DNA from: Candidatus Sumerlaeaceae bacterium
GTDB taxonomy: Bacteria > Sumerlaeota > Sumerlaeia > Sumerlaeales > Sumerlaeaceae
DNA: 64,000 bases
Direction of reading: 5' to 3'
Assembly (NCBI GenBank): GCA_049968255.1
Contig: JBMFRB010000003.1
Coordinates: 332,477-396,476 of the forward strand
Position 1 is the first letter of the stretch. The number at the start of each line of letters is the position of its first letter. Shown one piece after another: positions 38,747 to 58,882 of this stretch. The position numbers were made by a program, and so were the translations under genes. The notes beneath the pieces were generated by a model that saw nothing but the letters and a program-made list of their open reading frames with translations, was not told the origin of the DNA and did not search any database.

Positions 38747-39016
38747 GTGTCCAGCGAAGAAAAAAAAGAATGGTTCTTTAATACGGATCTGTCGCAGCTC
38801 ATGCGGTCAGATACCATGCCTTATCTCATGATCAATGTCATCGCCAGACGAGCAAAGCAGCTCGTCCACATGGACCAGCGGCCGCTGGCCTATCCAGCCA
38901 ATGGCTCACGGCGGCCAGCCGACATTGCGGCTGCGGAAATTTATGAGGGGAAATTACAAATCATCCCCCGCCAGCGGCGTAAGAGCGAGCAGCAAGAAAA
39001 GCCACTCGGCATTTGA
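38747..39016 (+). CDS. rpoZ: RNA polymerase omega subunit
   Basis: YLMINVIARRAKQL and RPADIAAAEIYEGKL omega motifs; SD GGAGGAG. Confidence 0.8.
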   Translation: MSSEEKKEWFFNTDLSQLMRSDTMPYLMINVIARRAKQLVHMDQRPLAYPANGSRRPADIAAAEIYEGKLQIIPRQRRKSEQQEKPLGI

Positions 39017-39094
39017 CAAGCCCGCTGTTGCGATTCGACGACTAAGAGATTGCGCGCGACGACATTGCTCCGACACGCGGACAAGAGTCGCACA

Positions 39095-39137
39095 AAAAGA
39101 TGAGGCGAAGCAAGGGATGCTTCGCCTTTCGCTTTTT
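39095..39137. terminator. Bidirectional intrinsic terminator between rpoZ and the pseudopilin array
   Basis: AGGCGAAGCA (39103-12) / TGCTTCGCCT (39118-27) stem; A-run before and T-rich tract after. Confidence 0.7.
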
Positions 39138-39164
39138 CAAAGCGCTTCGCAGCGCGCCAGATTC

Positions 39165-39800
39165 TTAGAAGCCGAAATTTGTGACGTCGTCCGGCTCTTT
39201 TCCTATATCCTCCCACGCCGCTGGCTGACCATTCGGGCCTCGCGAGCTGATCTGGAATGTCGAAGGATTGTAGTAGCCCGGCGCATAGGGATAGCCAGAC
39301 GGCAACTCGATGGCTCGCATTGTCGCGTAAGAATCGGGCGATGGCCCCGAGCGAACATAACGATACGGCGAGCGCCATGGATCCAGAATTTGAACTTGTC
39401 CCGGAACAAGCGTGCCGCCAGCCTCTTCCACCGGTACCCCATTGATATCCCCAAGGAACTCACGATTGATGGTAATGTAGGGGCCGTGCCAGTTGTAGGG
39501 CGTTTCCGTTCCTGTACCAATGCCCACACTCAGTGCCTGCTGCAAATAACCGCACCCCTGCGCAGGCGACGCTGCTGGGAATGTTCCCGAGCCGCTTCCG
39601 CTCGGCGGATACTGTCCCGTATCGATCTGGTAACGGTTGATGGCCACTTCGAGTTCGGTAATCATGGTGCGCGCCGCTGCGATACGCGCACGCTCGACTT
39701 GCGTTGTGTACACTCCCACCGAAATTGAAGCCAGGATGCCGAGGATCAACACCACGGCCAAGAGCTCGATGAGGGTAAAGGCTTTTGCGTCCTTTGTCAT
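39165..39800 (-). CDS. GspG-like major pseudopilin
   Basis: KA|FTLIELL prepilin site, YQIDTGQYP, WHGPYI, LDPWRSPY, SSRGPNG, DDVTNF. Confidence 0.88.
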   Translation of the reverse strand: MTKDAKAFTLIELLAVVLILGILASISVGVYTTQVERARIAAARTMITELEVAINRYQIDTGQYPPSGSGSGTFPAASPAQGCGYLQQALSVGIGTGTETPYNWHGPYITINREFLGDINGVPVEEAGGTLVPGQVQILDPWRSPYRYVRSGPSPDSYATMRAIELPSGYPYAPGYYNPSTFQISSRGPNGQPAAWEDIGKEPDDVTNFGF

Positions 39801-39817
39801 GGTATAACCTTTTTTCT

Positions 39818-40588
39818 TTATGGACGAAGTCCGAACTCTGATTCCACGCCGGCGATCCCAAAGAAGTAGATGATGTCGTCGCGGTTGTTGACCCCTGCCA
39901 GAGTCTCAGGCACGCCGTCTCGCCCGTAGCTCACCACCGCGTAGCGCTGAAAGTTTCGATCGTCACTCGATGTCAAGGCACCGTCGCTGAACGAGTACGA
40001 AAGGTTTGTAATATTGAGGTTCAGCGCGTTCGTGCCGATGATCCCTAATGGGGAATAGAAGCGATACGGCTGGCCCCACGGATCGAGGGGGAAGTCGAGT
40101 CGCACTTCCGTCGTGTCGATGAAATTGATATCCTTCGGATCCTGGTTGCCTGTGTAAACGCGATGGTAACTAATGAAGGGACCCCCCCAGTGATCAATCA
40201 TATCACGGATGCGAGGGTTGGGGCTTGTTGAGCTCAGCCGCAGCTGATTTCCCTGCTGATCCTGGGGACGAATCAACGGGTTGATGACAAAGAGTTGACC
40301 GCCGGGCTCGTTGCGAATTGTGTCGCCTTGAATGGTGAGGTTCTTAGGATGGGGTAAATCCGAGAGTACCTGGAATGGCACGTAAAAGCCATGAATCATC
40401 GCACACTGTTCCTCAGCCATGGCAATTTCGCGGCATTCTGCCATGGCCAGCCGAACACGCGCATCCTCCATCCGGTTGATGTAGACTGGGACCGCAATGC
40501 TCGAGAGCAAGCCAATGATGAGCATCACGACCAGCAGCTCCGTGAGAGTTAGTCCTCGATTATCTTTCGTATGCCTGTGCCACCACAT
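39818..40588 (-). CDS. GspG-like pseudopilin paralog
   Basis: RG|LTLTELL, WGGPFI, LDPWGQPY, SYGRDG, DDIIYFF. Confidence 0.85.
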   Translation of the reverse strand: MWWHRHTKDNRGLTLTELLVVMLIIGLLSSIAVPVYINRMEDARVRLAMAECREIAMAEEQCAMIHGFYVPFQVLSDLPHPKNLTIQGDTIRNEPGGQLFVINPLIRPQDQQGNQLRLSSTSPNPRIRDMIDHWGGPFISYHRVYTGNQDPKDINFIDTTEVRLDFPLDPWGQPYRFYSPLGIIGTNALNLNITNLSYSFSDGALTSSDDRNFQRYAVVSYGRDGVPETLAGVNNRDDIIYFFGIAGVESEFGLRP

Positions 40589-40611
40589 AGTTATAAAACT
40601 CTCCTTTTCGC

Positions 40612-41343
40612 CTAAAATTGGCGATACAAGTCGTCGCCCTGTCCAAAGAATGGTTCTGCACTTCCGGAACCGTTGCCGGGTACCCCATTCGGTCCGAGGC
40701 TCAAAATTGTGGGGCGATCAAAACGCAGAGTCGTGTAAGAGTTGCCATCCTGCCCCACGAAGGTGGTCGAGATCACTCCGTCGCGGTCGTTGACTAGACC
40801 CTCTTTTGTGAAGAAAAGGTATGGGTGGCCCCACGGATCCAGCGGTAGACCGGCAGGTTGCCCCGCAACAGGATTTTTCAGACCTGATTTACGCGCCACG
40901 TTTACGTAGGGGCCGTTCCAGTTGAAAGCCGTCTCGTTCTGCGCCATTCGGTCAAAAATTCCAACACCGCCTGGCACGAACGTCCCATTCTTCGTGTCAA
41001 TAAAGAGCAGCTTCGGATTCGCCACATCAGTGCGTAGCCCTTCATCGCGGATTCCATCCACGCGATCCGTTGTCAAACTCGACGAGGGAATACCGTCGCC
41101 ACCACTGACGTCGTCGAGGACATAGAGCCGATAGAAATACCCCGTATCGATCGCCGCGTGTTGCTGGGCTGTTTGCAAGGCCTCGAGGTCTTGCTGGCAT
41201 GCACTTAGTCGCGCCTCATCCGCACGCGTCACGTAAACAGGGATGATAATTGCCACCAAAATCCCGATGATGATCACCGATATGATGAGCTCAATGATGG
41301 TGAACCCACCGTTACTAAACCTATGAGCGTTCCATTTTCGCAT
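40612..41343 (-). CDS. GspG-like pseudopilin paralog
   Basis: GG|FTIIELI, WNGPYV, LDPWGHPY, SLGPNG, GDDLYRQF. Confidence 0.85.
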   Translation of the reverse strand: MRKWNAHRFSNGGFTIIELIISVIIIGILVAIIIPVYVTRADEARLSACQQDLEALQTAQQHAAIDTGYFYRLYVLDDVSGGDGIPSSSLTTDRVDGIRDEGLRTDVANPKLLFIDTKNGTFVPGGVGIFDRMAQNETAFNWNGPYVNVARKSGLKNPVAGQPAGLPLDPWGHPYLFFTKEGLVNDRDGVISTTFVGQDGNSYTTLRFDRPTILSLGPNGVPGNGSGSAEPFFGQGDDLYRQF

Positions 41344-42146
41344 TAGAATCTCACCTCGAGATCGTCGCCCGTGCCCAACACATCATCGTTGGGGTCATTG
41401 ATGTTTGCACCTTCCCGCACCAGGTTCTGGCGGATGAATGCCTGACCGTTTCCTGGCAATCCATCGGGACCCAGGGAAAAGATAGAACAATAATTGTAAT
41501 TCGACTCATTGAGAGGTGGGAAAAAGAGGTAAGGGTTGCCCCACGGGTCGACGGGAATTCGGTTCTTGTCGCTGTCGTAAAGATTTGCGTTGCCACCCCC
41601 GAATCCGCCCAGAGGGATATCGCGAATAGGGGAGTATTGCCCCCCATTCACGGTTCGCAACAGCGGCGAACCGCTTGCGCGCAGCTCCCCGTAGGTGATT
41701 GTGCGGTTCATTGTCACATACGGTCCCTTCCATTTTGGGCTTGCTGTTGTTCCTGCCAGTGCATACCACTCCTGCAACGTCAGGTTGCGTGGCGAGCGAT
41801 TATCAGCGCCCGGCACGTAGACCAACGGCGGGGTTTCAATTGTCACGCCACTCCAGCCGGCCGGCAAGGGGTTCGGCGCGTTGTTGATCACGTTGTCAAG
41901 ATCCTCAAGGCGGAAATAGAACCCCGTGTCGGCGTGCGCCATGATTTCTGCTTTCATGAGGCTCGTCAGATCAGCTTGCGCAGCGGCAATTTTTGCTTCC
42001 TCCACGCGGTTACGAAACAGCGGGATCACCATGAGGGCGAAGATCGCGATGACCGTCGCCACCATAGCGATTTCCATCGCCGTGAAACCTCGCTCGCTCT
42101 GCCGGAGCTGCCACCTGTTCATTTTTGGCATCCAGTGTCGTTTCAT
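41343..42146 (-). CDS. GspG-like pseudopilin paralog
   Basis: RG|FTAMEIA, WKGPYV, VDPWGNPY, SLGPDG, GDDLEVRF; start uncertain (42146/42122). Confidence 0.85.
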   Translation of the reverse strand: MKRHWMPKMNRWQLRQSERGFTAMEIAMVATVIAIFALMVIPLFRNRVEEAKIAAAQADLTSLMKAEIMAHADTGFYFRLEDLDNVINNAPNPLPAGWSGVTIETPPLVYVPGADNRSPRNLTLQEWYALAGTTASPKWKGPYVTMNRTITYGELRASGSPLLRTVNGGQYSPIRDIPLGGFGGGNANLYDSDKNRIPVDPWGNPYLFFPPLNESNYNYCSIFSLGPDGLPGNGQAFIRQNLVREGANINDPNDDVLGTGDDLEVRF

Positions 42147-42171
42147 GAGACTTGTCTCGTTCCTTCCGAAC

Positions 42172-43002
42172 TCAAAACTCCACATAACGATCGTCCGATC
42201 CCGTTTCGCGAATCCGTGGCCCTAGCGTGTCCACTGCCCCTGCCAAAGGATCGATGAGAATCATGTTCAGTCGACCGTTTGGCGTGTTGTAGGGATTCGC
42301 TGCCGATGTTGGGTCGGGGCCAGCCTGAAGAAGTTGGAACACCTTTGGATTTCCCGTATCATTATAGAGACGGTAGGCTTTTCGCTGATTGACTGCAGCC
42401 GGATCGGGCATGTCGCCCAGACCCGGCACACGGTTACGACCGTAGCTTACAATTCCCGCAAACTCATTTGGCTTTTCGCCGGCGCTCCAGATGAAGCGGT
42501 GGCGAATGGGATTACCGCCCGATGGCGGGTCCGTCGTCACAAAATAGGCCACGTAGGGATTGCCGAAAGGATCCGCCGGCCAGTCGAACTCACGCGTGAT
42601 CGAGTTGCTCACAAACTGCATTTTTACCGTGCGGTCCTGCGAAAACGCGGCGTAAGGCCCTTTCCACTGCTTGAAAAGCCGCGCCTGGAGGTCCCCTACG
42701 GGAAGTGAGTGATACTCGAGTGCGTCAAAGGCCATCCCCGTGAGCACGGAAACGAGATTGGTCGAGTTGAAGCGCAAAAAGCACATTTTTGGGAAAAAGC
42801 CCATGTCCTGCTGTGCAAAGGACATCGCTGTGGCAATCTGGCGGCATTCGGCCACCGAGGCTTTCTGCTTGTTCAGCGTGTACTGCGTTTCGATGCTGAA
42901 GATGAAGAGGCCGGAAAACAACGCGATGAGCGCTGCCACAATGAGCATTTCCGCAAGCGTGAAGCCCTTTCGTGAGTAGCGCCCTGTCGAGTGTCCCCGC
43001 AT
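42172..43002 (-). CDS. GspG-like pseudopilin paralog
   Basis: KG|FTLAEML, WKGPYA, ADPFGNPY, SYGRN, SDDRYVEF. Confidence 0.83.
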   Translation of the reverse strand: MRGHSTGRYSRKGFTLAEMLIVAALIALFSGLFIFSIETQYTLNKQKASVAECRQIATAMSFAQQDMGFFPKMCFLRFNSTNLVSVLTGMAFDALEYHSLPVGDLQARLFKQWKGPYAAFSQDRTVKMQFVSNSITREFDWPADPFGNPYVAYFVTTDPPSGGNPIRHRFIWSAGEKPNEFAGIVSYGRNRVPGLGDMPDPAAVNQRKAYRLYNDTGNPKVFQLLQAGPDPTSAANPYNTPNGRLNMILIDPLAGAVDTLGPRIRETGSDDRYVEF

Positions 43003-43184
43003 TATCTTTCTCTGAATCCTTTCTCGCCTCGAACCTACTGATATGACGCTTGCCTCGTGCGTGTCAACTTGGCCTTCGTCCTGCTTCGGCACGTGTGTGC
43101 AAGGTGCAACCCGCACCACCCCTCGCGCCGCCGAAGACACAGCACACCGGCCCGCTGACGTCGCACTATTCACATTGGCCTTTT

Positions 43185-45365
43185 TCACCACGAATTCTCC
43201 GCGAAGTGAATGATGCTACAGGGGCGAAAATCAAGTCCAAGAATCCAGTAACACCTTACCTGGGGCAACCACGCCGACTTTTTCTCACTGCTCACCTTGG
43301 AGGGTGTCTGGCTAACGACCTCAAATGCCAGACTTCCTACGCAAACCTGGTCCAAGAGTTTCGAAAGGGCCGCCGCCGCACTTGTGTCGAATATGCCTTG
43401 CGCAGCAACAAGGTTGGCAAAATCGCTCAACCGCGCAAATGGCACAAGCCCAGCTTGATAGTAGCCTTGGCGATAATTTTTAAAATTGCTCACAAATTGC
43501 GGCGTGATGAGCTCGACCCCACCACTGCTTCCGTCCAGCCCCCAAAGCGCTTCAGGAACACATGTGTTGACGTTGAGTTTGCCGTACGAGTGGAGGAGAG
43601 TCGAGTTTGGATAATCACCGGCGCCGCGCACCGCGGATCGCGTGGCGAATATGTCCACAAGCCGCGCATCTAGATTCGTCGCGTCCGTTTGCTCAAGTTT
43701 TCCCCCCGATCGCTGCTGCCGGCCGATTTCTGGAAGCTGCGCCAAATGGGGAACAAAACGCTTTACGCTGCTGTTTCCACTCAATCCTACGTACGAGGTC
43801 GGAATGAGGAAAAGATGACCCAGTCCAAATTCCTTCCCTGACCGGACATCGCGCCGCAGCGCCTCAATGCTTCGGAGCAATTCCCGCGCTGGGGCCGTGC
43901 GATCTGCTGCGTACTGATCAAACGGCGTGGCCTCCGCCACAATGAACGCTCGCACCGTCGGATCGACCCGCTGGTAACTCTCACGGCTATCTGCTTTCGC
44001 GCGATCTGTGTAGCTAAAAATATCAATGAGCTGCCCGCGCTCGTTCACCAGGGTGACGAACGAGTTCTTGTTGGGCAGCTCCAACGCCGCCGACTGGATG
44101 ACACGCCGGTTCGTTTCATCCCCTTTTCGGCCAAAAATCGCGAGAAAGCAGCCCGTGCCCGGCTCGCTTTGCGGTGCAGGCACATCATACTGATCAGTAA
44201 CGATGAGGTAACCGTTGGGAGCAATCTGCCCTGTCAGCGCTATCATGGCCGAGCCGAGTAAGCCGTTGGCTCCGCCACTCACAACGAGTCGCCAGCCCTC
44301 CACAGAGACCGGCTCGGCCCAAGGATTGTAGAGTTCCACAAACTGGCCCTCATCACTACCACGCGTGACAGAATCGGGATACACTTCCGTGATGAAGGGT
44401 GTGCGTTCGATGCCGAGCAAATCATTCCAAGGCTCCGGGTGCTTCGGGTCGGAAAGCCGAGAGGGGACGTCATCGTCGTCGAGCACATCTGCAAGATTCA
44501 CAGCATATTGTCGCAAAAGCCGGTCTTCCTTATCAGGAAAAGCAGCCGCCAGCACAGCATAAGCTTTTTCGGCCGTGAGATCTTTGAGCGAAATTTTCTC
44601 CGCGATGGCGGGAGGCGTGCTTTTCCCGACGACCGCGCCTGCCCCCACGTTCTGACTCTCACTTGCCATAGAGAAAACCGTGACGTAGGGCGCGAGCTTC
44701 GCCACTTCGTCACGTGTGAAAAGTAGCGGGTTGTCACTCGTCGCGACGAGTTGTTCGATGTGCTCGATCCGTCGGAATCCCGGCGGAGGAGCAACCCTGA
44801 GATCGAGGCACGCTGTTGTGGCCCAATCCTGAAATGCGCCGCGCCACTGGAGCATGGCCTGGGCTCGGGTAAGCGCCGTGCCGTTCGCCATGTCTTGCGG
44901 CATCACGGCCAGCAAGAAGCGCGCAAAAACATTTGCGTCGCGCACGGCGTTGAGGTTCAGTCTACCCGACAGGTCGCTAATTTGCAGGTCATAAGGACGC
45001 GGCACGGCGTCATCGGCACGCCCACCTCGCTTCACCCGGACTGTTCTCGACTGTTTGGGGGCGCGGCCCTCTTTCGTCACCATACGAGCCTGCGCCCACG
45101 GTTGAAGCAGGTGGGTGACTGAAGTGGCACCTTCCAGATATCCCAGAGCCTCCGACAACGTCCCCCGCACCGCAATCGAGGTGCTGATCACTTGCGCAGA
45201 GTTCTGGCTCGAGGCAAGCTCCATCCGCACCGACACAGACAACGCGGCCGCAATCAGGCCCAGGAGAGCCAACAGTGCAAGAACCACGAGAAGCGTGGAC
45301 CCACGGGAGGTCCCTCCTCTCGTGTGTGGCAAGTGCCCCAATATGAGCGTCCAGCGTCTACGCAA
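43185..45365 (-). CDS. GspK/PilX-like minor pseudopilin with inserted lamin-tail domain
   Basis: RG|STLLVVL (no Glu5), DLSGRLNLN, LAPYVTVFS; LTD (PFITEVYPD, FVELYNP...VEGWRL, IAPNGYLIV); GKLNVNT, PFARLSDF. Confidence 0.78.
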   Translation of the reverse strand: MRRRWTLILGHLPHTRGGTSRGSTLLVVLALLALLGLIAAALSVSVRMELASSQNSAQVISTSIAVRGTLSEALGYLEGATSVTHLLQPWAQARMVTKEGRAPKQSRTVRVKRGGRADDAVPRPYDLQISDLSGRLNLNAVRDANVFARFLLAVMPQDMANGTALTRAQAMLQWRGAFQDWATTACLDLRVAPPPGFRRIEHIEQLVATSDNPLLFTRDEVAKLAPYVTVFSMASESQNVGAGAVVGKSTPPAIAEKISLKDLTAEKAYAVLAAAFPDKEDRLLRQYAVNLADVLDDDDVPSRLSDPKHPEPWNDLLGIERTPFITEVYPDSVTRGSDEGQFVELYNPWAEPVSVEGWRLVVSGGANGLLGSAMIALTGQIAPNGYLIVTDQYDVPAPQSEPGTGCFLAIFGRKGDETNRRVIQSAALELPNKNSFVTLVNERGQLIDIFSYTDRAKADSRESYQRVDPTVRAFIVAEATPFDQYAADRTAPARELLRSIEALRRDVRSGKEFGLGHLFLIPTSYVGLSGNSSVKRFVPHLAQLPEIGRQQRSGGKLEQTDATNLDARLVDIFATRSAVRGAGDYPNSTLLHSYGKLNVNTCVPEALWGLDGSSGGVELITPQFVSNFKNYRQGYYQAGLVPFARLSDFANLVAAQGIFDTSAAAALSKLLDQVCVGSLAFEVVSQTPSKVSSEKKSAWLPQVRCYWILGLDFRPCSIIHFAENSW

Positions 45366-45608
45366 ACTTGATTACCAGCCTCGCGAATCCAATGCCCAGT
45401 CTATAGCAACCTCAGCGAGTTGTAAACTTGGCCCCGAAAAAAGTTGTTCCTCTGACCAAGGCCGCGAAATGCATTTTCCGCAAAGCACCAAACGCAAATG
45501 CAACGAAATAAGCGGCCTCGGCTCCCCCCCATCATGAGGCTGTGTCACTCATCAACATTTTCCGCCCCTGGACTGTACGCTTTTTTGAGTAACCTTTGAG
45601 TAACCTTG

Positions 45609-46778
45609 ATGATTGACCTTGGTCGCCATATCCCACGCGGAGCGCGTATCCTCGTCGCAATGAGTGGCGGCGTGGACAGTTCGCTTACTGCTGCGCTGCT
45701 TCAACGCGCCGGTTTCGAGTGTGTGGGCGTGAACATGCGCACGCACTCACTCGAACCTCTGGACACAAGCCCCCGCAAGTTTCAAACGTGCTGCTCGCCA
45801 GAGGACGCGCGCGATGCTCGGGCCGTCGCCGATGTGGCACGAATTCCTTTCTATGTGCTCGATCTAGAGCGCGAGTTCGAGCAGGCGGTGATTGAACCAT
45901 TCATTCGCGACTATGCAAGCGGCCGCACGCCCAATCCTTGCGTACTCTGCAACAACTCCCTCAAGCTTGGCGTGTTGCTGCAGAAAGCTGCAGGTTGGGG
46001 GTGCGACTATGTGGCAACGGGCCATTACGTGCGCGTTGTGGAAAATCCCGCTTCAGGGCGAATGGAGCTGCGGCGCGCCGCCGACCGTGCGAAAGACCAG
46101 TCCTATTACCTCTTTGGGCTACGGCAGGAACAGCTCCGCAGGCTCATTTGTCCGCTGGGAAGCCTGACCAAGCCGCAGGTCCGCGAACTGGCCCGCGAGC
46201 TGGGACTGCCTGTCCATGATAAGCCCGACAGTCAGGAGATATGCTTCGTCCCTGGAGGGGATTATCGCCAATTTCTTCGCAAACGCGGCGTGGAAGCTGC
46301 GTTTCGCCCTGGGCTCATCGTTAGGCGCGATGGCACTGTGCTGGGCCAGCACGAGGGGATTGCTAACTACACCATCGGGCAACGCCGCGGCCTCCGAGTC
46401 ACCTACCCGGAGCCACTCTACGTGATCGAGCTCGATCCGGTGCGAAATCTCGTTGTCGTAGGCACTGCCGAAGAAGCATTTCAGAGTGAACTTCTTTGCG
46501 GCGGATTGAACTGGGTTGCCATGGAAGAGCCGGAAAAGGCCTTCCCTGCCCAGGCCCAAATTCGCTACCGGACCCGCCCCGCAGAAGCGATCGTCGACCC
46601 CCCACTCGCAGGCTGTTGCCGCGTTCGTTTTGCACATCCTCAGCGCGCAATCACACCAGGGCAGGCAGTGGTCTTCTATCGCGACGACGTCGTGCTGGGC
46701 GGGGGGTGGATCGAGACCACCGGCTTACCATCGCCATTCAGTGTTGCCACACGCGTGGCCCAGGAGGGAAATCTGTGA
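45609..46778 (+). CDS. mnmA: tRNA 2-thiouridylase
   Basis: AMSGGVDS, TPNPCVLCN, ATGHY, KDQSY, DSQEICF, TIGQRRG, ITPGQ. Confidence 0.97.
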   Translation: MIDLGRHIPRGARILVAMSGGVDSSLTAALLQRAGFECVGVNMRTHSLEPLDTSPRKFQTCCSPEDARDARAVADVARIPFYVLDLEREFEQAVIEPFIRDYASGRTPNPCVLCNNSLKLGVLLQKAAGWGCDYVATGHYVRVVENPASGRMELRRAADRAKDQSYYLFGLRQEQLRRLICPLGSLTKPQVRELARELGLPVHDKPDSQEICFVPGGDYRQFLRKRGVEAAFRPGLIVRRDGTVLGQHEGIANYTIGQRRGLRVTYPEPLYVIELDPVRNLVVVGTAEEAFQSELLCGGLNWVAMEEPEKAFPAQAQIRYRTRPAEAIVDPPLAGCCRVRFAHPQRAITPGQAVVFYRDDVVLGGGWIETTGLPSPFSVATRVAQEGNL

Positions 46779-47668: not shown

Positions 47669-49012
47669 ATGATGGCGACAACACATCGATCAGCTGCGTT
47701 TCTCTGTGTGATGATGCTTGCACTCAGTGCTGCGTGGGCGCGTTTGCCCGAGGATGGGCTGGCAAAAGCTCAGGAAGCGGAACGGGCGCTCAAAGCAGGC
47801 GACCCGCAACATGCGATTGCACTGCTCGTCGAGCTTGACGCCACCTACCCCAACGAACCAGCCGTGAACCTCCGGTTGGCGGAAATCTATGATCAGCAGG
47901 GACAACCGGGAGCCGCTCTTTACTACTATCGCCGCTACGTGCAGTTGGCTGGCCAAGCAGCACGGGCCACAGCCAAGGAGCGTGTCCAAACACTGGAAAT
48001 GACAGCGGGAGCCCGCGAGGCTGCCGACGTCATTGCCAAGCGACTCGGTCAAAAGGTCAGGGCCGTAAGCACGCCAACACCTGTCGTGCAGCAGGCCATC
48101 GAAAAACTGCTGCCCGATGGGGCTCGCGTGCGCGTGGATTCGCCCGAAGAACTTATGAGCGATAAGGTGAATCCGAAAAAACTTGTGGCTCCGACTCCGG
48201 AAACATCCCAACATCCGCTGGCCAAGGCCGAAGTGATCATTCGCGGATCTGATGAAACAACGGCCCCGTCTGTTTCGTCGCGTCGCACGCCCTCGCCTGT
48301 GTTTACTCCGCCGCCCATTGCCCACCAGTGGCCGGATACCCAAACAGCAAAACCCACCTTAGGACCAAATGAAGAAAACGAGACGCCGCGTACATCCGAA
48401 CCCGTTCCGCAGCCGGTCTCCCCGAATGCTCATGACGAAAAGTCCGACCTAAACCCGCACGCACAAGCCGCTTTGATCCAGCCTAACAAAGTCAGCTCAA
48501 CAAAAACAATACCATCGAGCCAGGACAATCAAGGCGAGGGTCGCAGCTCAAACAGAATAACCATAGAGTTTGCTCCAGCTGAAAGAACCTCATCAGCGAA
48601 GCCAAGAGCAGCCGCGTCAGCGAGTAGCCCTACCAACAGCGCAGAGGAGTCTGCTCCAACAGCGTCACCTTACGTTCGCCTTCCCCTCAGCGATCCAGCT
48701 AAATTTTTCCTTGTCTATCCTAGCGGTGGCGAAAAAGCCCGCCTGAGCCTTGCAAACAGCTTCCGCAATGCCGTGGTGGTTTTTTCCGCTTTGCCCGCGA
48801 CTGGGGGGGAGCCGGTCAATGCTATTGTCGGCCCAGGAGAAACGCGCACTTACGAGGTGACTCCCGGGCGCTATGCCGTCCATACAAAAATCACCGATGA
48901 TAGCTATCCGCCTGTCACGCTGCTTGACACACGTTTCGACTATGAGTTCCAAAGCGGGATGAGTTATGCCCGCCGGTTCAGCGACCGCGAACGCACAGGC
49001 GAGCTGCGCTGA
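47669..49012 (+). CDS. Exported protein with N-terminal TPR, Pro/Ser/Thr-rich linker and small C-terminal beta-domain
   Basis: Signal peptide; YPNEPAVNLRLAEIY...ALYYYRRY TPR; low-complexity middle; GPGETRTYEVTPGRY. Confidence 0.72.
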   Translation: MMATTHRSAAFLCVMMLALSAAWARLPEDGLAKAQEAERALKAGDPQHAIALLVELDATYPNEPAVNLRLAEIYDQQGQPGAALYYYRRYVQLAGQAARATAKERVQTLEMTAGAREAADVIAKRLGQKVRAVSTPTPVVQQAIEKLLPDGARVRVDSPEELMSDKVNPKKLVAPTPETSQHPLAKAEVIIRGSDETTAPSVSSRRTPSPVFTPPPIAHQWPDTQTAKPTLGPNEENETPRTSEPVPQPVSPNAHDEKSDLNPHAQAALIQPNKVSSTKTIPSSQDNQGEGRSSNRITIEFAPAERTSSAKPRAAASASSPTNSAEESAPTASPYVRLPLSDPAKFFLVYPSGGEKARLSLANSFRNAVVVFSALPATGGEPVNAIVGPGETRTYEVTPGRYAVHTKITDDSYPPVTLLDTRFDYEFQSGMSYARRFSDRERTGELR

Positions 49013-49143
49013 ATAGGCCGTTCGTGTGTTATGGTTTTAGAGCCTCGGCCGCCCGTTCAGTCGGGGGGCTCATGCTTCACTTGACTCCGTGTTTCTTGCG
49101 CAGCAAATGCGTCGCGTACCGAAATCGCGATGGGGAGGACACA

Positions 49144-50526
49144 ATGCCCCCAATCTTTTTTCATCCAAAGCTAGCTGCAGTGGCCTTGCTTCTCGCCAGC
49201 TTTTCCATGACCGTGTGCGCTGAGACGCGGGCATTCAAAATCGTGGACGACCCGGCCCTCGATTCCGCCGTCACGGAAGCGCGGAACGAGTTCATGCGCG
49301 ACAAGCCTTTCCAAAGGCTTGATGTTGCTCTTCTCGTGCCGGATGCCGATGGTAGTTGGCGGCGGGGCAGCTACAATGGCGAAGCCCTGGCCTATCCAGC
49401 GAGTTGCGTGAAGCTGGCCTACCTTGCCGCAGCTATGTCTTGGTGCCGCCAAAACAAGCTTCCCTATCGTCAGCTCGACGTCGCAGTGCGCCCCATGATT
49501 GTAAAATCCGACAATTATCAAACCGGTGTTGTTGTGGATACAATCACCAGTGCTCCCAACGTGGACGATCTGACCACCGTGACGGATCCACGGTGGGTGG
49601 AGTGGATCGAGCGCCGCCACTACACTGCTCGCTACCTCGACGCGCGCGGGCTGCTTGGAAACCAGATCATCCTCCACAAAACTTATCCCACAAATTCTGG
49701 GGAGTGGCCGCGCGGTGCAGAGAAAGTCGCGCGCGATGTGTTTGGGATGAATAAAATGCAACCGCGGCTCAGCGCCTCGCTCATGCTCGAAATTGCAAAA
49801 GGAGCGCTCGAGCCCGATGCGCGCGATTACATGCTCGAACTCCTGGAGCACGATCGTTGGAAATCCAATAGCGTCCTTGGGTTCGGCCTGCCTCCTGGCG
49901 CGAAGTACTGCAACAAGCCTGGTCTCGCTTACGACACATTAGAGGACATCGCCTACGTCGTGCTGCCAAACGGCAAGGAATTCATCGTGGCGGCATTCTC
50001 CAATGCATTCTGTCCGCCCTACTCCCACGATCCCGATCCCTACGACAGCTCGCAGCTCGGCCCCTTCATGGAGTTGCTCCTTGCGAAAACAGGACTCGCT
50101 GAGGGATGTCCACTGCCGGTGATGAAGTCGGTCGGAGATCCTCAGTTCGTGGTGGAAACCGAAGGCTCCTGGACTGAAGAGACAACGGCCACCTCCCGCG
50201 GCCCAGTGAAATATCTTCTCGCAAAAGCAGAAACCACTTCAACCAAGGCACGGGTGAAACTTGGCGTTGAACGCTCAGCCAAGTACGAAGTTTGTGTGCG
50301 CCACATGGCCGCCCCCGACCGTGCAAAGGTTGTGTTCGCCGTGCAGCACGCAGGAGGAGAAACGACAAAATCCGTCGACCAAACCCGCATCCACGACCGT
50401 TGGGTCAAGCTTGGCGATTTTGATTTTCCGCCTGGCGGAGGTCAGATTGAAATACGTCCCGCGCACGACACACCGTCCACAGCCACCATGTGTCTTTACG
50501 CAGTGCGCGCCACAGCCTATCCGTGA
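49144..50526 (+). CDS. Exported class A beta-lactamase-like serine hydrolase with C-terminal golvesin/xanthan-lyase-CBD-like domain
   Basis: YPASCVKL (SxxK), KSDN, NKPG; C-terminal KYEV...VDQT...WVKLGDFDF. Confidence 0.78.
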   Translation: MPPIFFHPKLAAVALLLASFSMTVCAETRAFKIVDDPALDSAVTEARNEFMRDKPFQRLDVALLVPDADGSWRRGSYNGEALAYPASCVKLAYLAAAMSWCRQNKLPYRQLDVAVRPMIVKSDNYQTGVVVDTITSAPNVDDLTTVTDPRWVEWIERRHYTARYLDARGLLGNQIILHKTYPTNSGEWPRGAEKVARDVFGMNKMQPRLSASLMLEIAKGALEPDARDYMLELLEHDRWKSNSVLGFGLPPGAKYCNKPGLAYDTLEDIAYVVLPNGKEFIVAAFSNAFCPPYSHDPDPYDSSQLGPFMELLLAKTGLAEGCPLPVMKSVGDPQFVVETEGSWTEETTATSRGPVKYLLAKAETTSTKARVKLGVERSAKYEVCVRHMAAPDRAKVVFAVQHAGGETTKSVDQTRIHDRWVKLGDFDFPPGGGQIEIRPAHDTPSTATMCLYAVRATAYP

Positions 50527-50975: not shown

Positions 50976-52547
50976 TCACTTTGCGAACTCCACGAATCGC
51001 GTTTCGCGAAGTACGGTGACTTTGATATGTCCAGGATACTGGACTTCGTTTTCGATGCGTTTGGTAACCTCGCGTGCGAGAAGAGCAGCTTCGTTGTCGC
51101 TGATAGTCTCGGGATTGACGATGATGCGCAGTTCGCGCCCAGCCAGCATGGCGTAAGATTTCTCCACACCTGGGAAACTCGACGCGATGGCTTCGAGATC
51201 CTGCAGTCGCTTGACGTAGGCCTCGAGTGCCTCACGCCGCGCTCCCGGCCGGCTCGCCGACACTGCATCGGCCACCTGCACCAGCACAGCGGCCAGAGTG
51301 CGAGGTTCTTCCTCATTGTGATGGGCGGCGACGGCATGCACAACCGGCATGCTTTCACCGTATCTTTTGCACAGATCAGCCCCAATCAAGGCGTGTGTGC
51401 CCTCCATTTCGTGGCTCACCGCCTTGCCGATATCATGCAGAAATCCAGCTCGCTTGGCCAGCTGGATATCCGCGCCCAATTCCGCAGCCATGTGCGCACA
51501 GATGTGCGCCACTTCGATGCTATGCAGCAGAATGTTTTGCCCATAGGAAACGCGATATTTCAAACGGCCTAACAGCTTGTGAAGCTCGGGATGCAGGTCC
51601 ACGATGCCAAGTTCCAGAGCCGCCTGTTCACCTTCCTGGCGCAAGTGCTCCATGAACTCGCGTTCGATTTTGCGAACGACTTCCTCGATGCGTGCCGGAT
51701 TGATGCGACCGTCCGCAATGAGCTTTTCTAATGCCTGGCGCGCGATTTCACGCCGCAAGGGATCGAAACAGCTTAGGACGATTGCGTCCGGCGTGTCGTC
51801 AACAATCAAGTTGACTCCCGTTACGGCTTCGAAAGCACGGATGTTACGGCCTTCACGCCCGATGATTCGCCCTTTCATCTCGTCCGACGGCAACGTCAGT
51901 GTCGAACAGATCGTCTCGGTCGTTAGGTCTGTCGAGCATCTTTGAATCGCCAGCGTGATGATTTGGCGTGCCTTGCGTTCGGCTTGCTCTTTAGTTTCAT
52001 TCTCAATTCGCCGAACAATGGCGGCTGCCTCCTGGCGAACCTCACTCTCGAGCTTTTCCAAAAGGTAGCATTTCGCTTCTTCTGCCGTCATGCCGGCAAT
52101 TTGTTCGGCACGTTGTCGCGTTTCCTGTTCCAGCTGCGCAAGTTCTGCCTCGCGTTTGCTCAGTTCCTGCAACCGCTCGTCGAGCTCCTGCTCTTTACGC
52201 GCGAGCGTCTTCTCACGCTGCTCGTAATTCTCGATCTTGCTGTCGAGCGTCCGTTCTTTGTTACGGAGACGGTTCTCAAGTCGCTCCACTTCGGAACGTT
52301 TGCGCGAAAGCTCTCGCTCGGCCTGCTTTGCCTTCTGGAACACGAGCTCCTTGGCCTCCACCTCCGCGGCTTTACGGATGGTGTCAGCTTGCTTTTGGGC
52401 TTCCTGCAGAATGATCTCGGCTTCTTTTTGGGCTGAGCTGATCTGCACTCCCATCCGCTTGGCGAGGAACCAATAAGTGCCAGCGATAGCTGCCAAAATC
52501 GCGATAGCAACCACGCCAGCCACGGCGAGGATAAGTACCAAGCTCAT
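50976..52547 (-). CDS. rny: Ribonuclease Y
   Basis: N-terminal TM, coiled coil, KH ([14 protein letters not shown]), HD (FLHDIGKA), [21 protein letters not shown]; SD GGAGGTG. Confidence 0.97.
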
Positions 52548-52837
52548 GGGAGAGAGTCACCTCCAGAATCATGTTGTCAAAGAACCTACTCAGCTCGGCT
52601 CTTGCCCGAGCCCGACGCGGCTTAAACGACCCCTCCACAGCAAGGACGCAAATGCCGCATCTGAAACATAATAGAACAATTTTTCGCCTCACTCATTCCA
52701 ATTTTCTTTGATGCTTCTCTGCTTTCGTTCAAAAGGAGGTCCAATCCCATCGATGGTGTCCGAGTTGCAAAATTCCCGCGATCCCACACTGCTCGTCATG
52801 GCATAGCCCCATCATGGCAGGAGCCGAGTTGTCACAC

Positions 52838-53854
52838 ATGCACAACCACGACAAGCCACCTTTGCTTTCGGTACTGTTACCAGTGCGCAACGCAGAGCCC
52901 ACGCTCGGAGAAGCCATCGCGAGCGTTCTCAATCAGACCTGGAGTCATTTCGAGCTCGTAGTCATTAACGACAGCTCAACCGATGGGAGTGATAGGGTCG
53001 CCCGAGCCTGGCAGCAGCGCGACTCGCGTGTCAACGTTGTGGAAAACAAAGGACAGGGAATCATTGAGGCGCTGCAAACCGGCCTTAGCGTCGCGCGTGG
53101 CGATTTTATTGCGCGCATGGACGCCGACGACAGAGCTCTTCCCCAGCGCTTCGCCAAACAGATGGAACTTATCGAGCGCGACCCCCGCTGCAGTGTTTGT
53201 GCCACTCATGTGAGCGACATTGGCGACGTGGGGCAAGGCCGACAGCGCTACACTCAATGGCTCAACAGCGTGCGTACCCACGACGACGTCGTGCGCAATC
53301 TCTTTATCGAATGCCCCGTCGCCCATCCCACTTTGATCATTCGGCGCCGAGCACTGGAACATGTGGGCGGCTATCGTGACGTGCCGTGGCCGGAGGACTA
53401 TGACCTTATTCTTCGATTATGGCTAGCCGGAGCCCGATTTGCTGTCGTTGCCGAGCCATTGGTTGAGTGGGGCGATTCACCCTCGCGGCTGTCACGGACG
53501 GACCCGCGCTATTCGCCCGAAGCATTTCGCCAGTGTAAGCTGCATTATCTCCCCCTTGCGCCCTATTTTCGGCCGGGACGAGAGCTAATCCAGTGGGGCG
53601 CTGGGAAAGAAGGCAAATGGTGGTTGAAGCACTTGCCACCGCCGATGCGACCCACCGTCGTGGTCGACATTGATCCAAGAAAAGTCGGCCAGCGCATCCA
53701 CGGCACCCCTGTCATTGCCCCAGAAAGTCTTGGTTCTCCCCGGAGCCGCTTTCTACTAATTGCTGTTGGAGTGCACGGAGCACGCGAAGAAATTCGCCCC
53801 TTTCTTTCCCTACGCGGTTGGCGCGAGCTCGACGATTATCTCTTCCTCTGCTAA
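52838..53854 (+). CDS. GT2 glycosyltransferase with C-terminal Rossmann-like domain (QTGAL/B3GNTL1-like)
   Basis: SVLLPVRN, INDSSTD, ARMDADD, RYTQWLN, HPT, PEDYDL, WGAGKEGK, VDIDPRK. Confidence 0.85.
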   Translation: MHNHDKPPLLSVLLPVRNAEPTLGEAIASVLNQTWSHFELVVINDSSTDGSDRVARAWQQRDSRVNVVENKGQGIIEALQTGLSVARGDFIARMDADDRALPQRFAKQMELIERDPRCSVCATHVSDIGDVGQGRQRYTQWLNSVRTHDDVVRNLFIECPVAHPTLIIRRRALEHVGGYRDVPWPEDYDLILRLWLAGARFAVVAEPLVEWGDSPSRLSRTDPRYSPEAFRQCKLHYLPLAPYFRPGRELIQWGAGKEGKWWLKHLPPPMRPTVVVDIDPRKVGQRIHGTPVIAPESLGSPRSRFLLIAVGVHGAREEIRPFLSLRGWRELDDYLFLC

Positions 53855-53914
53855 TCGCTTTTGCTTTTCGACCGCACCCCCCACACCCCAGCGATGTTGA
53901 ATATGAATATAAAT

Positions 53915-53929
53915 CTACTAGAATAATAG
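53915..53929. promoter_or_regulatory. Candidate operator upstream of sat
   Basis: CTACTA-GAA-TAATAG imperfect inverted repeat in an AT-rich patch. Confidence 0.35.
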
Positions 53930-54066
53930 TCGTTCTCCGAGGGTATGTAAGGTATGTCCACTGGAACAGGCCCGTGTTGCGATTTGCCACGGCATGTTAC
54001 TGTGGGCGGGCGAAACGGTCGCAGCCGTGCTTTAGACGATAGTTCATAACAGAAAGAAGAGGACGA

Positions 54067-55272
54067 ATGACAACAACTGCTGAACAACGAAGAGTGGAGC
54101 AACTTATTGAGCCTCACGGCGGACGCCTGGTGAACCGGGTGCTCAACGCAGAGGCACGTGCAGAGGCTCTTGCTCGCGCCCAGAGCCTGCCGAAGCTCGT
54201 CGTTGGCGAGTGGGAAGCCTCCGATATTGAGCTTATCGCCGTTGGGGCGGTCTCCCCGCTCGAAGGCTTCATGTCCTTCGAGGATTATAATAGTGTTGTC
54301 AATAGCATGCATTTGGCGAGTGGACTCCCGTGGACCATTCCCATAACCTTAACCGTGAACGAGGTTTTTGCCACGTCGGTCAAAGAAGGCGACGATGTGG
54401 CGATCTACGATGTGGCCGGCACGTTGTTAGCAATCCTCCACGTCGAATCAAAGTTCCGCTTTCACAAACAGAACGAGGCGGTGCAAATCTACGGCACGGA
54501 TGACGAAAAGCACCCTGGGGTGGCGGCGCTCATGAAGCGCAGCGAAATCGCGCTTGGGGGACCGTTGGACGTCGTCAATCTTCCGCCCCATGCGGATTTT
54601 CAGCATTATCGCCTCACCCCCGCGCAGACACGTGAAAGTTTCCGCAAACGTGGATGGCGCCGAATCGTCGGTTTCCAGACGCGTAACCCCATCCACCGCG
54701 CGCACGAGTATATGCAGAAAGTGGCCATGGAAATCACCGATGGACTTTTCCTGCACCCTCTCGTGGGCAAAACGAAAGACGACGACGTCTCAGCCGAACT
54801 ACGCATGCGCACCTACGAGGTCATTGTCGAAAAGTATTATCCACGCGAGCGCGTTGTGATTGCGGTAAATCCCGCGGCTATGCGCTATGCCGGTCCACGC
54901 GAGGCCGTATTTCATGCGCTTATCCGCAAGAACTATGGCTGCTCGCATTTTATTGTCGGGCGCGATCATGCCGGTGTCGGCAATTACTACGGCACCTTCG
55001 ACGCGCACTACATCTTCGATAACTTTGACCCTCAGGCCATCGGCATTGTGCCACTCTTCTTTGATTACACATTCTACTGCCGGGCCTGCGGTAACATGGC
55101 CAGTGTGAAAACCTGCCCACACACAAAAGAGTACCACGTGACCCTCAGTGGCACGAAAGTGCGGGAAATGCTCACGGCAGGCGTGATGCCACCGCCAGAA
55201 TTCACGAGGCCTGAGGTTGCCCAGATCCTCATCGAAGGCTATGCGGCCCAACAACAAGGGGCTGGGATCTAA
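54067..55272 (+). CDS. sat: Sulfate adenylyltransferase (ATP sulfurylase)
   Basis: PHGGRLV, SPLEGFM, FQTRNPIHRAHE, MRYAGPREA, HFIVGRDHAGVG, CRAC...CPH Zn site, LSGTKVR. Confidence 0.97.
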   Translation: MTTTAEQRRVEQLIEPHGGRLVNRVLNAEARAEALARAQSLPKLVVGEWEASDIELIAVGAVSPLEGFMSFEDYNSVVNSMHLASGLPWTIPITLTVNEVFATSVKEGDDVAIYDVAGTLLAILHVESKFRFHKQNEAVQIYGTDDEKHPGVAALMKRSEIALGGPLDVVNLPPHADFQHYRLTPAQTRESFRKRGWRRIVGFQTRNPIHRAHEYMQKVAMEITDGLFLHPLVGKTKDDDVSAELRMRTYEVIVEKYYPRERVVIAVNPAAMRYAGPREAVFHALIRKNYGCSHFIVGRDHAGVGNYYGTFDAHYIFDNFDPQAIGIVPLFFDYTFYCRACGNMASVKTCPHTKEYHVTLSGTKVREMLTAGVMPPPEFTRPEVAQILIEGYAAQQQGAGI

Positions 55273-55342: not shown

Positions 55343-55478
55343 TGGCGCTGGGGTCCAGTGGCGTGAGAGATCTCTTGCAATCGCCTGCCCTTAAGCCTCC
55401 TATGGTTTGCTAAGCCAGGTGTGCCATGCTCGGTCCGGTACACTTGGATCATCGCGGATACACAAGGAGGCTCGGTTC

Positions 55479-56273
55479 GTGCTCAATCACATCTTTGCGT
55501 TTCTGGTTGTGGTCGGAATTCTCGTAGCTCTGAGTTCGTCGCTCTATCACGCACAGCGAGGCGAGGCCGTGGTGAAAGTCGTGGGTGGCCGAGAAATGGT
55601 CGAGCTGCGGCCTTACGCCACGTGGGGCGAGAAACTGAAAGCGATTGCCGCCGCTGGCGACAAAATCACTCAATCTGCCATCAACACCGCGGGGTTTCGC
55701 TACGAAGATCCGCAAACAAAGCAGGAAAAAAGCGGTGCCGTCGGGCTGGCGATTGATTACATTGGAATCATGGCCTTGTGGCTCGGTTTCATGAAAATTG
55801 CCGAGGCCGCCGGCCTCATCCAGCTCTTGGCCCGTGGCATTGCCCCAGTGTTTCGGTTCCTTTTTCCCCGCGTGCCCGTCGATCACCCTGCAGCGGGAGC
55901 TATGCTGATGAATATGGCCGCGAATGTGCTCGGGCTCGACAACGCCGCCACACCCCTCGGCATCAAAGCCATGAAGGAGCTGCAAGAGCTCAACGGGCAA
56001 AAAGATACCGCCTCCAATGCCATGTGCATGTTCCTGGCGCTCAATACATCGAGCCTTACTCTGCTCCCCGTTTCGGTCATAGGGTGGCGCGTTGCGTCGC
56101 ATTCGGCAGCGCCCGCCAGCGTCATTGTTCCCATCCTCATTGCCACGTCGTGCGGAAAAATCGCGGCGATCGTGGCCTGTAAGCTCTTAGAACGTCTCAG
56201 CCCCGACACACCCAGCACGCTCGAAGATCATGAGGCTTCGGCTGCACCATCGTCCGAGGATGCCGACCGATGA
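55479..56273 (+). CDS. spmA: SpmA-like nucleoside-recognition (Gate) membrane protein
   Basis: MLNHIF, GIMALWLGFMKIAE, LFPRVP.DHP, ANVLGLDNAATPLGIKAMKELQELN; SD AAGGAGG. Confidence 0.9.
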   Translation: MLNHIFAFLVVVGILVALSSSLYHAQRGEAVVKVVGGREMVELRPYATWGEKLKAIAAAGDKITQSAINTAGFRYEDPQTKQEKSGAVGLAIDYIGIMALWLGFMKIAEAAGLIQLLARGIAPVFRFLFPRVPVDHPAAGAMLMNMAANVLGLDNAATPLGIKAMKELQELNGQKDTASNAMCMFLALNTSSLTLLPVSVIGWRVASHSAAPASVIVPILIATSCGKIAAIVACKLLERLSPDTPSTLEDHEASAAPSSEDADR

Positions 56274-56809
56274 AAGAATTTGTCGAGCTCATCAATAGCT
56301 GGGTCATTCCGCTGATCTTTCTGTTCATTATCGCCTACGGATATGCTCGCCGCGTGAAGGTGTATGAAGTGTTCGTCGAAGGGGCAAAGGAAGGTTTCAA
56401 CGTTGGCGTCATGATCATCCCCTACCTGGTCGTTATTCTTTGTGCCATTGCGATCTTTCGAGCCAGCGGGGCCATGGACATGCTTGCACGCGCTATCGCG
56501 TATTTTCTGCCGCCCGCAGTGGTACCGCCCGATGTTATTCTCCTCGCGCTTGTGAAGCCCTTGAGCGGGAGCGCAGCTCGCGGCGTCATGCTTGATATCT
56601 TCGCTCGCTATGGGGTGGACAGCCTGCCTGGTTTCATGGCTAGCGTTATTCAGGGAAGCACCGAAACCACGTTCTATGTGGTGGCCGTTTACTTCGGGGC
56701 CATTGGCGTAAAAAATCCGCGTCATACCATCGCTGCAGGCTTGACCGGCGAGTTTACCGGCATAGTAGTCTCCATTATTCTAGCTCACGTGTATTTCGCC
56801 ACCAGATGA
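56270..56809 (+). CDS. spmB: SpmB-like membrane protein
   Basis: VYEVFVEGAKEGF, IIPYLV, KPLSGS, GSTETTFYVVAVYFG. Confidence 0.92.
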   Translation: MKEFVELINSWVIPLIFLFIIAYGYARRVKVYEVFVEGAKEGFNVGVMIIPYLVVILCAIAIFRASGAMDMLARAIAYFLPPAVVPPDVILLALVKPLSGSAARGVMLDIFARYGVDSLPGFMASVIQGSTETTFYVVAVYFGAIGVKNPRHTIAAGLTGEFTGIVVSIILAHVYFATR

Positions 56810-57799: not shown

Positions 57800-58882
57800 A
57801 TGAATGCTCGCGAAATGGATCTTTGCGTAACGGGCGCAGCACCATGTGACGAAAACGGTCGGCCCCTCATGGTCGGCGGACAAGCCCTCATCGAGGGAGT
57901 CATGATGCGTGCTCCCCATGGCGTCGCTATGGCTGTGCGCCGGCCTGATGGTTCGATTGTCGTGCGGGCCGAACCTTACCGTCCCTTGGCTAAGCGCTCT
58001 CGCTGGCTTGGGCTTCCCATCGTGCGCGGTGCAGTGTCGCTCATCGAGATGCTCGTCATCGGCTACCGTGCGCTCGAATTTTCTGCCCTTGAAGCCAGCC
58101 GCGAAGAGGCAACCACCTTGGCGGCAACGCCCCAAGAGACCTCGAAGCGCGACCTTATCTTTTCTCTGATTCTTGGGGTGGCGCTTGCCATCGGGCTATT
58201 TGTGGTGCTGCCGAATCTGGCCACCCACTTCAGCGCGCTGCCATTTGCTGGCAGCGGACGCCGCCTTCTCGAAGAACATTCTCCCGTGCTTTACAACCTC
58301 ATTTCTGGGGGCATACGGATCGCGATCTTCGTCGCCTATGTGTGGCTTATTTCACGGATGCCCGAAGTCTCCCGCATGTTTCAGTACCATGGCGCCGAAC
58401 ACAAAACCGTAAGCGCCTATGAGGCTGGCTTGCCGCTCACGGTCGAGAATACTCGCCGCTTCTCGACGTTTCATCCGCGTTGCGGTACCACCTTCATCGC
58501 AATCGTTTTGCTCGTGGCCGTCGTCGTGTTTGCCGTTTTTGCACGCATATTGCTAGCCGTGTGGCCAGCTTTTGCCGAGCTGCCCTTTGCGGCACGCAAA
58601 GCCATCCTTATTGCGGGACACATCCTGCTTATGCCTGTCGTCGCAGGTGTATGCTTCGAACTCCTTCGCCTCGGCGGCCGCTATCCAAATAATCCGCTCG
58701 CAAAAATCTTTCTCGTGCCCGGTTATTGGTTTCAGCGGCTGACGACTAAAGAACCAGACGATTCGATGCTTGCCGTCGCGATTGTCGCGCTGGAGCACGC
58801 CTTTGCTATTACAGAGGAGCCCCGCACCGTTGTGCTCAATGCCAAAGTGCCACGCGAAGCAGGGGCTCTTGCCGCGAGCTGA
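57800..58882 (+). CDS. DUF1385 family membrane protein
   Basis: [38 protein letters not shown]. Confidence 0.92.

Follow-up and report, generated by a model that had tools for sequence, protein, structure and literature searches.

Does a bacterium encode a counterpart of B3GNTL1, the eukaryotic queuosine-tRNA galactosyltransferase (QTGAL)? The question is raised by a gene of glycosyltransferase family 2 (GT2) at 52838..53854 on the plus strand of a 64,000-nucleotide stretch of DNA from a Candidatus Sumerlaeaceae bacterium (the window, at its full length), for which a first-pass annotation had proposed a bacterial QTGAL orthologue that adds a sugar to queuosine (Q) in tRNA. Our analysis places the GT2 protein in a large bacterial family of B3GNTL1-like architecture that is so far unnamed and uncharacterised. 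We tentatively propose, in the knowledge that the chance falls short of even, that it is an inverting uridine diphosphate (UDP)-sugar transferase of the QTGAL build, with Q at position 34 (Q34) of tRNA as its most likely single acceptor.

A soluble two-domain enzyme with intact catalytic motifs

The open reading frame (ORF) at 52838-53854 (+) has 338 codons and no internal stop. An alternative in-frame ATG upstream at 52814 would give a protein of 346 aa, eight residues longer, and homologues in an alignment of 40 sequences begin close to the 52838 form. The description of the product in the first-pass annotation as a 338-aa GT2 lacking a transmembrane segment is borne out: PF00535 matches residues 11-175 (E 6.1e-35, 121 bits against a Pfam cut-off of 23.3), and the highest mean Kyte-Doolittle hydropathy over 19 residues is 1.42, a measure that exceeds 1.6 in 6 of 121 family members. 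The motifs that had been quoted were all located in the translation, with RYTQWLN at residue 137, HPT at 163, PED at 185, WGAGKEGK at 253, VDIDPRK at 276 and GWRELDDYLF at 327. An AlphaFold model of the full protein (predicted local distance difference test (pLDDT) 95.9, predicted template-modelling score 0.92) resolves two domains joined by a linker, and the features of the gene are as follows.

52838..53854, plus strand: GT2 gene, 338 aa, stop codon included; from translation of the ORF
52862..53452, plus strand: GT-A (GT2) catalytic domain, residues ~9-205; from PF00535, the model and structural matches
53120..53131, plus strand: DAD(D) metal and nucleotide-sugar motif, D95-A96-D97-D98; D95, D97 and D98 invariant in 40/40 sequences
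53246..53332, plus strand: family-specific motifs RYxxWLN (137-143) and ECPxAHP (158-164), assigned to the acceptor side; from conservation
53393..53398, plus strand: E186-D187 of the PEDYD motif, presumed catalytic-base region; invariant in 40/40 sequences
53453..53557, plus strand: linker, residues 206-240, with a long helix and a conserved basic stretch, RLSxTDxRY..FR..K; from conservation and the model
53558..53851, plus strand: small C-terminal Rossmann-like domain, residues 241-338, with GAGxxGK at 53594-53617; from the model and fold matches

In GT2 enzymes generally, the DAD motif holds the metal and the donor, and the ED motif supplies the catalytic base. Both are invariant in the alignment of 40 (D95, D97, D98, E186 and D187), as are the nucleotide-binding residues D45 and S47, and by its motif content the protein is predicted to be an intact, metal-dependent, inverting enzyme. 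Invariance extends to Y138, W141, E158, C159, P160, H163 and P164 of the family-specific motif regions and to W211, R217, S219, Y225, F230 and K234 of the linker, in which residues 227-240 form a helix in the model. Across phyla, relatives are 45-65% identical and 47 positions never vary, with Arg or Lys at many of these, and this pattern suggests one conserved, probably anionic, acceptor.

Resemblance to the eukaryotic enzyme

The likeness to QTGAL appears when the protein is compared with the ESM Atlas. Once clusters with the accessory GT2 Pfam families typical of bacterial relatives had been filtered out, the nearest named cluster was a eukaryotic 'putative UDP-GlcNAc:betaGal beta-1,3-N-acetylglucosaminyltransferase-l...' (B3GNTL1/QTGAL-like; score 0.98, 199/256 features), which is 100% Eukaryota, is commonest in diatoms and has a length of 511 aa. 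The next clusters were Bacillota GT2 proteins with C2185-like_N/CoA_binding (0.95) and phage GT2 proteins (0.93). The first-pass annotation gives the motif order of human B3GNTL1, unaligned, as RYTRWIN, MPT, PED, WNAGKQG, CDVDENK and a terminal EGQDFLHF, an order that agrees with the positions conserved in the bacterial family. Taken together, the Atlas match and this motif order make full-length homology of the GT2 protein to QTGAL probable. Sequence and fold searches of the PDB returned no QTGAL structure, the matches listed in sequence searches with the GT2 protein and with its C-terminal module were bacterial or unnamed proteins and included no eukaryotic B3GNTL1 sequence, and cluster look-ups of 20 odd-length matches gave no eukaryotic names.

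In published descriptions, QTGAL is B3GNTL1 and acts on tRNA-Tyr, where the homoallylic hydroxyl of Q receives a beta-linked galactose; the use of UDP-galactose as donor and of bimolecular nucleophilic substitution (SN2) is described in bioRxiv 10.64898/2026.06.28.735034. A QTGAL orthologue is described as absent from flies, and C. elegans as having the gene with no detectable galactosyl-queuosine (galQ). The GT2 protein is likewise a soluble GT2, the inverting chemistry expected of it fits the beta-galactoside that QTGAL makes by SN2, and the substrate base Q is made by its bacterial host. In contrast, one enzyme is eukaryotic and the other bacterial, and the two are likened through Atlas features and motif order. 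Positions that are invariant among close bacterial relatives (C159, H163, G259 and K260) already vary in a bacterial member of 34% identity.

Structural relatives of the catalytic domain

Among solved structures, the GT-A domain is closest to K4 chondroitin polymerase (K4CP, 2z86; Z 24.4, root-mean-square deviation 3.1, 229 residues aligned), heparosan synthase 2 (Z 24.2) and SpsA (1h7l; Z 23.7), with further matches to WrtF, TarS, TarP and RmlT and a Foldseek E of 1e-15. The polysaccharide GT2s as a group (E. coli K4 chondroitin polymerase, P. multocida heparosan synthase 2, B. subtilis SpsA, S. aureus TarS/TarP) have in common with the protein the DXD motif, the N-terminal half that binds the nucleotide and the GT-A fold, which matches at Z 22-24 over ~215-260 residues; however, identity is only 14-21%, none of these enzymes has a C-terminal Rossmann-like domain so arranged, and the GT2 gene here lies outside any glycan locus. 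In sequence, the catalytic domain is nearest to tandem-GT2 polysaccharide-synthase-like proteins, at 36-40% identity. The best partial matches in NCBIfam are of the EpsE, TuaG, PgaC and WcaA types, with EpsE first at 100.8 bits against a cut-off of 450 and all 25 listed families far under their cut-offs. Ordinary polysaccharide GT2s, grouping with which was named in the first-pass annotation as evidence that would tell against a QTGAL-like enzyme, are the nearest solved and sequence relatives of the catalytic domain. The Atlas neighbour of the whole protein is B3GNTL1-like.

These kinships could mean that the gene encodes, on its own, an ordinary envelope or polysaccharide GT2 that works at the cytoplasmic face of the membrane, where its acceptor would be an oligosaccharide linked to a lipid (undecaprenyl-phosphate), a polymer resembling teichoic acid or a polysaccharide primer. 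The best solved relatives, the NCBIfam partial matches and the catalytic domain shared with the tandem-GT2 proteins are all consistent with such a role, as are the recurrence of the C-terminal fold in WbaP and in PglF/WbpM-type enzymes of lipid-linked glycan synthesis and a patchy spread, in ~20% of genomes, that is typical of surface-glycan genes. We nevertheless regard it as rather unlikely, given that no NCBIfam equivalog comes near its cut-off, that the gene is never found among conserved glycan genes in 80 related loci and is distant from the glycan locus of the window, that 45-65% identity across phyla and a fixed architecture are unusual for strain-variable glycan glycosyltransferases, and that the protein has no membrane anchor.

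The C-terminal domain and a possible small-molecule acceptor

The C-terminal domain has no match in a Pfam scan of the GT2 protein at E up to 1, and in relatives it gives sub-threshold matches to CoA_binding and PglD_N (E 0.003-0.25). Modelled separately (pLDDT 93.6), it matches the folds of 3nkl (Z 11.2), the accessory domain of WbaP (8t53; 10.7), 2g6t (9.8) and Rex with nicotinamide adenine dinucleotide (NAD+; 9.4), and at lower scores the PglD/VioB-type N-terminal domains (8.5/7.9), as well as TcaB9 and FkbM types. The fold of residues 241-338 resembles that of small accessory Rossmann-like domains of nucleotide-sugar and glycan enzymes, represented by 3nkl, WbaP, 2g6t and the PglD/VioB N-terminal domains and in Pfam by CoA_binding, PglD_N and C2185-like_N, with 86-94 residues aligned; it differs from them in identity (16-20%) and in following a GT2 domain.

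A domain of this kind, with its glycine-rich GAGxxGK loop, would also suit an enzyme whose acceptor is soluble and either bears a nucleotide or is a small molecule. Nucleotide-sugars, cofactors, free 7-deazaguanine nucleosides and precursors of compatible solutes are examples; the Rossmann-like domain would hold the nucleotide part of such an acceptor, or it might sense a dinucleotide as Rex does. The fold matches to nucleotide-binding Rossmann domains, from Rex with NAD+ to the N-terminal domains of PglD/VioB type that sit on nucleoside diphosphate sugars and the TcaB9 and FkbM types, point in that direction, as does the solubility of the protein, and the glucosyl- and mannosyl-3-phosphoglycerate synthases, soluble GT-A enzymes with phospho-acceptors, match it structurally at Z ~15.6-15.9. 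Those scores are, however, far under those of the polysaccharide GT2s, no biosynthetic neighbours suggest such a pathway, and the Atlas look-alike is B3GNTL1-like. As such, an acceptor of this class appears distinctly unlikely.

A bacterial family with fixed architecture and patchy distribution

The 120 listed relatives of the GT2 protein are 323-370 aa long, with 95-100% coverage and 46-100% identity, which puts the gene well past a chance reading frame, and the assemblies of the named ones are labelled Sumerlaeota, Hydrogenedentota, Nitrospiraceae and Gemmatimonadota. ESM Atlas clusters with the same full-length structure (template-modelling score 0.93-0.96) come from at least six phyla and are commonest also in Verrucomicrobiota, Myxococcota, Pseudomonadota and Bacteroidota. 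When the C-terminal module alone (residues 206-338) served as query, an exhaustive search found 797 representatives at E <= 1e-3 and 335 at E <= 1e-10, which puts the family at ~335-800 clusters at 50% identity, and in each of the best 150 of the 797 the module is C-terminal, in ~335-aa proteins or in fragments. Long forms are rare and consist of one-off joins (to uvrA, a methyltransferase, YkuD, HEAT or PilZ), Arg/Ala-rich read-through artefacts and tandem GT2s, and since they are of these kinds, fusions were dropped as a clue to function.

Distribution is patchy within phyla, with a full-length member in 16 of 75 genomes of the host phylum and 20 of 101 sampled Gemmatimonadota (a sample that includes G132 and G172, flagged as unpublished, neither of which carries the gene). 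Two cultured Bacteroidota, Aureibacter tunicatorum NBRC 107587 (plasmid pAT1) and Persicobacter sp. JZB09, have full-length members of 32-34% identity on large plasmids. The Aureibacter protein, at 34% identity, retains the DAD, WLN, PEDY, RL(T)RTD-RYS, WGAG and EIR motifs and varies at C159, H163, G259 and K260.

Several groups of proteins share parts of the family sequence. The tandem-GT2 proteins (P0126-P0135; G015:C104 and G016:C49), of 684-972 aa, match through the catalytic domain and the linker, as far as about residue 245, and have no Rossmann-like domain; they form the closest sister group of the catalytic domain and also occur in the host phylum. In P0246, P0247 and P0249, parts of the family sequence are joined to HEAT/PBS-lyase-type repeats, P0247 consisting of half a glycosyltransferase domain and the Rossmann-like domain followed by HEAT repeats. 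Two stramenopile proteins (P0190 and P0265) match the glycosyltransferase domain only, to about residue 220-230.

A stand-alone gene among housekeeping neighbours

The first-pass annotation had set the gene between rny and sat and outside the glycan locus, and the identified neighbours agree. The RNase Y gene (rny, 50976-52547, minus strand) is the divergent upstream neighbour, the ATP sulfurylase gene (sat, 54067-55272, plus strand) lies downstream, and the glycan genes of the window (Wzy_C, two GT4, Wzt ABC and PMT_2) are ~31 kb away. A promoter and terminator scan at the gene gave no signal over the shuffled background.

We then compared 80 related loci with 6 kb flanks, in which ORFs from a crude caller were clustered and the GT2 gene was recovered in 63 of 81 sources. 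Gemmatimonadota loci have the order uvrA, the GT2 gene, a TPR protein, gyrA and a pyridoxal phosphate-dependent enzyme; in Hydrogenedentota and Nitrospiraceae-labelled assemblies, it is Lon, an EngB-like GTPase, a 240-aa ORF, the GT2 gene, an extracytoplasmic function (ECF) sigma factor with a putative anti-sigma factor, and type II secretion system (T2SS) genes. Among the 21 largest neighbour clusters, each found in 4 to 20 loci, are uvrA, gyrA, cysK-like, Lon, EngB-like GTPase, ECF sigma and T2SS genes, and none of the 21 is a glycosyltransferase, nucleotide-sugar or glycan-export gene. Neighbouring ORFs of 240, 351 and 433 aa have weak TPR or anti-sigma matches only. Because the neighbours are housekeeping genes, the syntenies around family members are lineage-specific only and the Aureibacter gene likewise stands alone, the GT2 gene behaves as a stand-alone, accessory, well-conserved gene for a cytoplasmic enzyme, unlike strain-variable glycan glycosyltransferases.

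A soluble enzyme encoded alone in housekeeping surroundings, here beside RNase Y, and with many conserved basic residues might also act on another cytoplasmic macromolecule, be it a protein or some other base in RNA or DNA. Nothing specific favours such an acceptor, which we consider highly improbable. For a DNA base in particular, full-length relatives would be expected in phages and viruses, where DNA-base glycosylation is expected, but 0 of 86 phage records cover at least 80% of the GT2 protein and 0 of 43 IMG/VR viral loci match past residue 252.

The queuosine pathway of the host

The host genome (3.1 Mb, 95.75% complete) encodes tgt (540 bits), queA (398 bits) and queG (293 bits), all over curated cut-offs and on contigs other than that of the window. 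The absence of tgt or Q from the host, which had been held to tell against Q glycosylation, is thus not observed. The profile search of this genome found neither QueH nor a QueF of the TIGR03138 type, and no GluQRS score passed the cut-off. Across genomes, tgt is present in 68 of 75 members of the host phylum and in all 101 Gemmatimonadota; among carriers of the GT2 gene it is found in 15 of 16 from the host phylum (the exception being 72% complete), in 20 of 20 Gemmatimonadota and in all five from other lineages. Co-occurrence with tgt, suggested in the first-pass annotation as a check, therefore holds in nearly all carriers and yet discriminates nothing, since tgt is near-universal in the phyla sampled.

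Proposed mechanism and the evidence bearing on it

The fold, the intact catalytic motifs, the solubility, the two-domain architecture, the spread of the family and the presence of the Q pathway are directly supported. Full-length homology to QTGAL, the donor and, above all, the tRNA acceptor are inferred. In the proposed reaction on Q34, the DAD motif would hold a divalent metal and the UDP-sugar, while the ED motif would supply the base for an SN2 transfer that yields a beta-glycoside. The acceptor pocket, to which the linker with its basic stretch, the Rossmann-like domain and the family-specific motifs would all contribute, would take the cyclopentenediol of Q34 in tRNA modified by the host's own tgt/queA/queG pathway.

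The link to Q-tRNA is one of resemblance, and several observations weigh against it. The Atlas match to the B3GNTL1-like cluster is a whole-protein feature similarity and not a sequence alignment. The catalytic domain has its nearest sequence relatives in the tandem-GT2 proteins and its nearest solved ones in K4CP, heparosan synthase, SpsA and TarS/TarP, and the C-terminal domain is closest in fold to accessory domains from enzymes of nucleotide-sugars and lipid-linked glycans. Genomic context is silent on Q: none of the 80 related loci contains tgt or queA within the 6 kb flanks, an Rfam scan of 52300-54200 (E <= 1) gave 0 matches, hence no preQ1 or other riboswitch, and Rfam scans of 11 related loci found no preQ1 riboswitch. 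Co-occurrence with tgt is uninformative, as described above, and the family, with a median isoelectric point of 6.7, is not notably basic. In addition, sugar-modified Q is described for vertebrates and other animals and glutamyl-queuosine (gluQ) for bacteria (PMC10690763). The notion of a bacterial QTGAL orthologue keeps its stand-alone soluble GT2, its extra C-terminal domain and its B3GNTL1-like Atlas neighbour, whereas the context, the riboswitch scans and the phyletic pattern have no tie to queuosine.

If the GT2 protein does glycosylate Q34, it would have a bacterial parallel in GluQRS (YadB), which decorates Q34 of bacterial tRNA-Asp, in that each enzyme would act on the cyclopentenediol of queuosine and would be accessory and patchy in distribution. 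The two differ in that GluQRS has an unrelated fold and carries out an aminoacyl-tRNA-synthetase-like glutamylation.

The sole Rfam match in the 11 related loci is a c-di-GMP-I-GGC riboswitch (59.2 bits, E 5e-11) at 12395-12472 (+) of the Gemmatimonadota locus L034, ~5.4 kb downstream of the family member.

Other genes of the window

Two RNA-metabolism genes lie near the GT2 gene, RNase Y directly adjoining it and mnmA (tRNA 2-thiouridylase; 45606-46778, plus strand; three tRNA_Me_trans Pfam domains, E 3e-71) ~6 kb upstream. Directly downstream of the ATP sulfurylase gene, two neighbouring 'Gate' (nucleoside-recognition, SpmA/SpmB-like) membrane proteins are encoded at 55407-56809 (+), and the order rny / glycosyltransferase / sat / spmA-B-like is common only with one close Sumerlaeota relative (L006). 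A DUF1385 protein follows at 57800-58882.

Between mnmA and rny, a 447-aa Pro/Ser-rich TPR protein (47669-49012) adjoins a 500-aa protein (49024-50526, plus strand) with a beta-lactamase-family domain and a Golvesin C-terminal domain. Before mnmA, a run of minus-strand ORFs with few or no Pfam matches (E <= 1e-8) occupies 34478-45365. It includes a 961-aa ORF (34478-37360), next to which an FHA-domain protein and metallophosphatases are encoded, as well as four ORFs without a Pfam match at 39821-43191 and a 726-aa lamin-tail-domain protein (43188-45365), and a plus-strand ORF within it (38835-39725) is likewise without a Pfam match.

The surface-glycan locus at ~10082-21089 (+) encodes a Wzy_C O-antigen-ligase-like protein, two GT4 proteins, large TPR proteins, a Wzt-type ABC ATPase with Wzt_C and a PMT_2 family transferase. 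Beyond it come a class-V aminotransferase and lpxK at 22947-24200.

Implications

Our literature search found no description of sugar-modified queuosine in bacteria or of QTGAL homologues there, although the primary QTGAL paper and its supplements, which lay outside that search, may discuss bacterial relatives. It is possible, if doubtful, that this GT2 family adds a sugar to Q34 across many bacterial phyla and that eukaryotic QTGAL descends from it, as the queuine-insertion enzyme does from bacterial Tgt. Should the proposal prove false, there would still be a large, conserved, stand-alone family of cytoplasmic glycosyltransferases without a substrate. Should it prove true, hexosyl-queuosine would be a tRNA modification new to bacteria, the animal enzyme would have an evolutionary origin, and the effect of the sugar on decoding could be studied in a tractable system. 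The occurrence of a bacterial enzyme of the QTGAL build in hundreds of clusters would make bacterial queuosine glycosylation directly testable.

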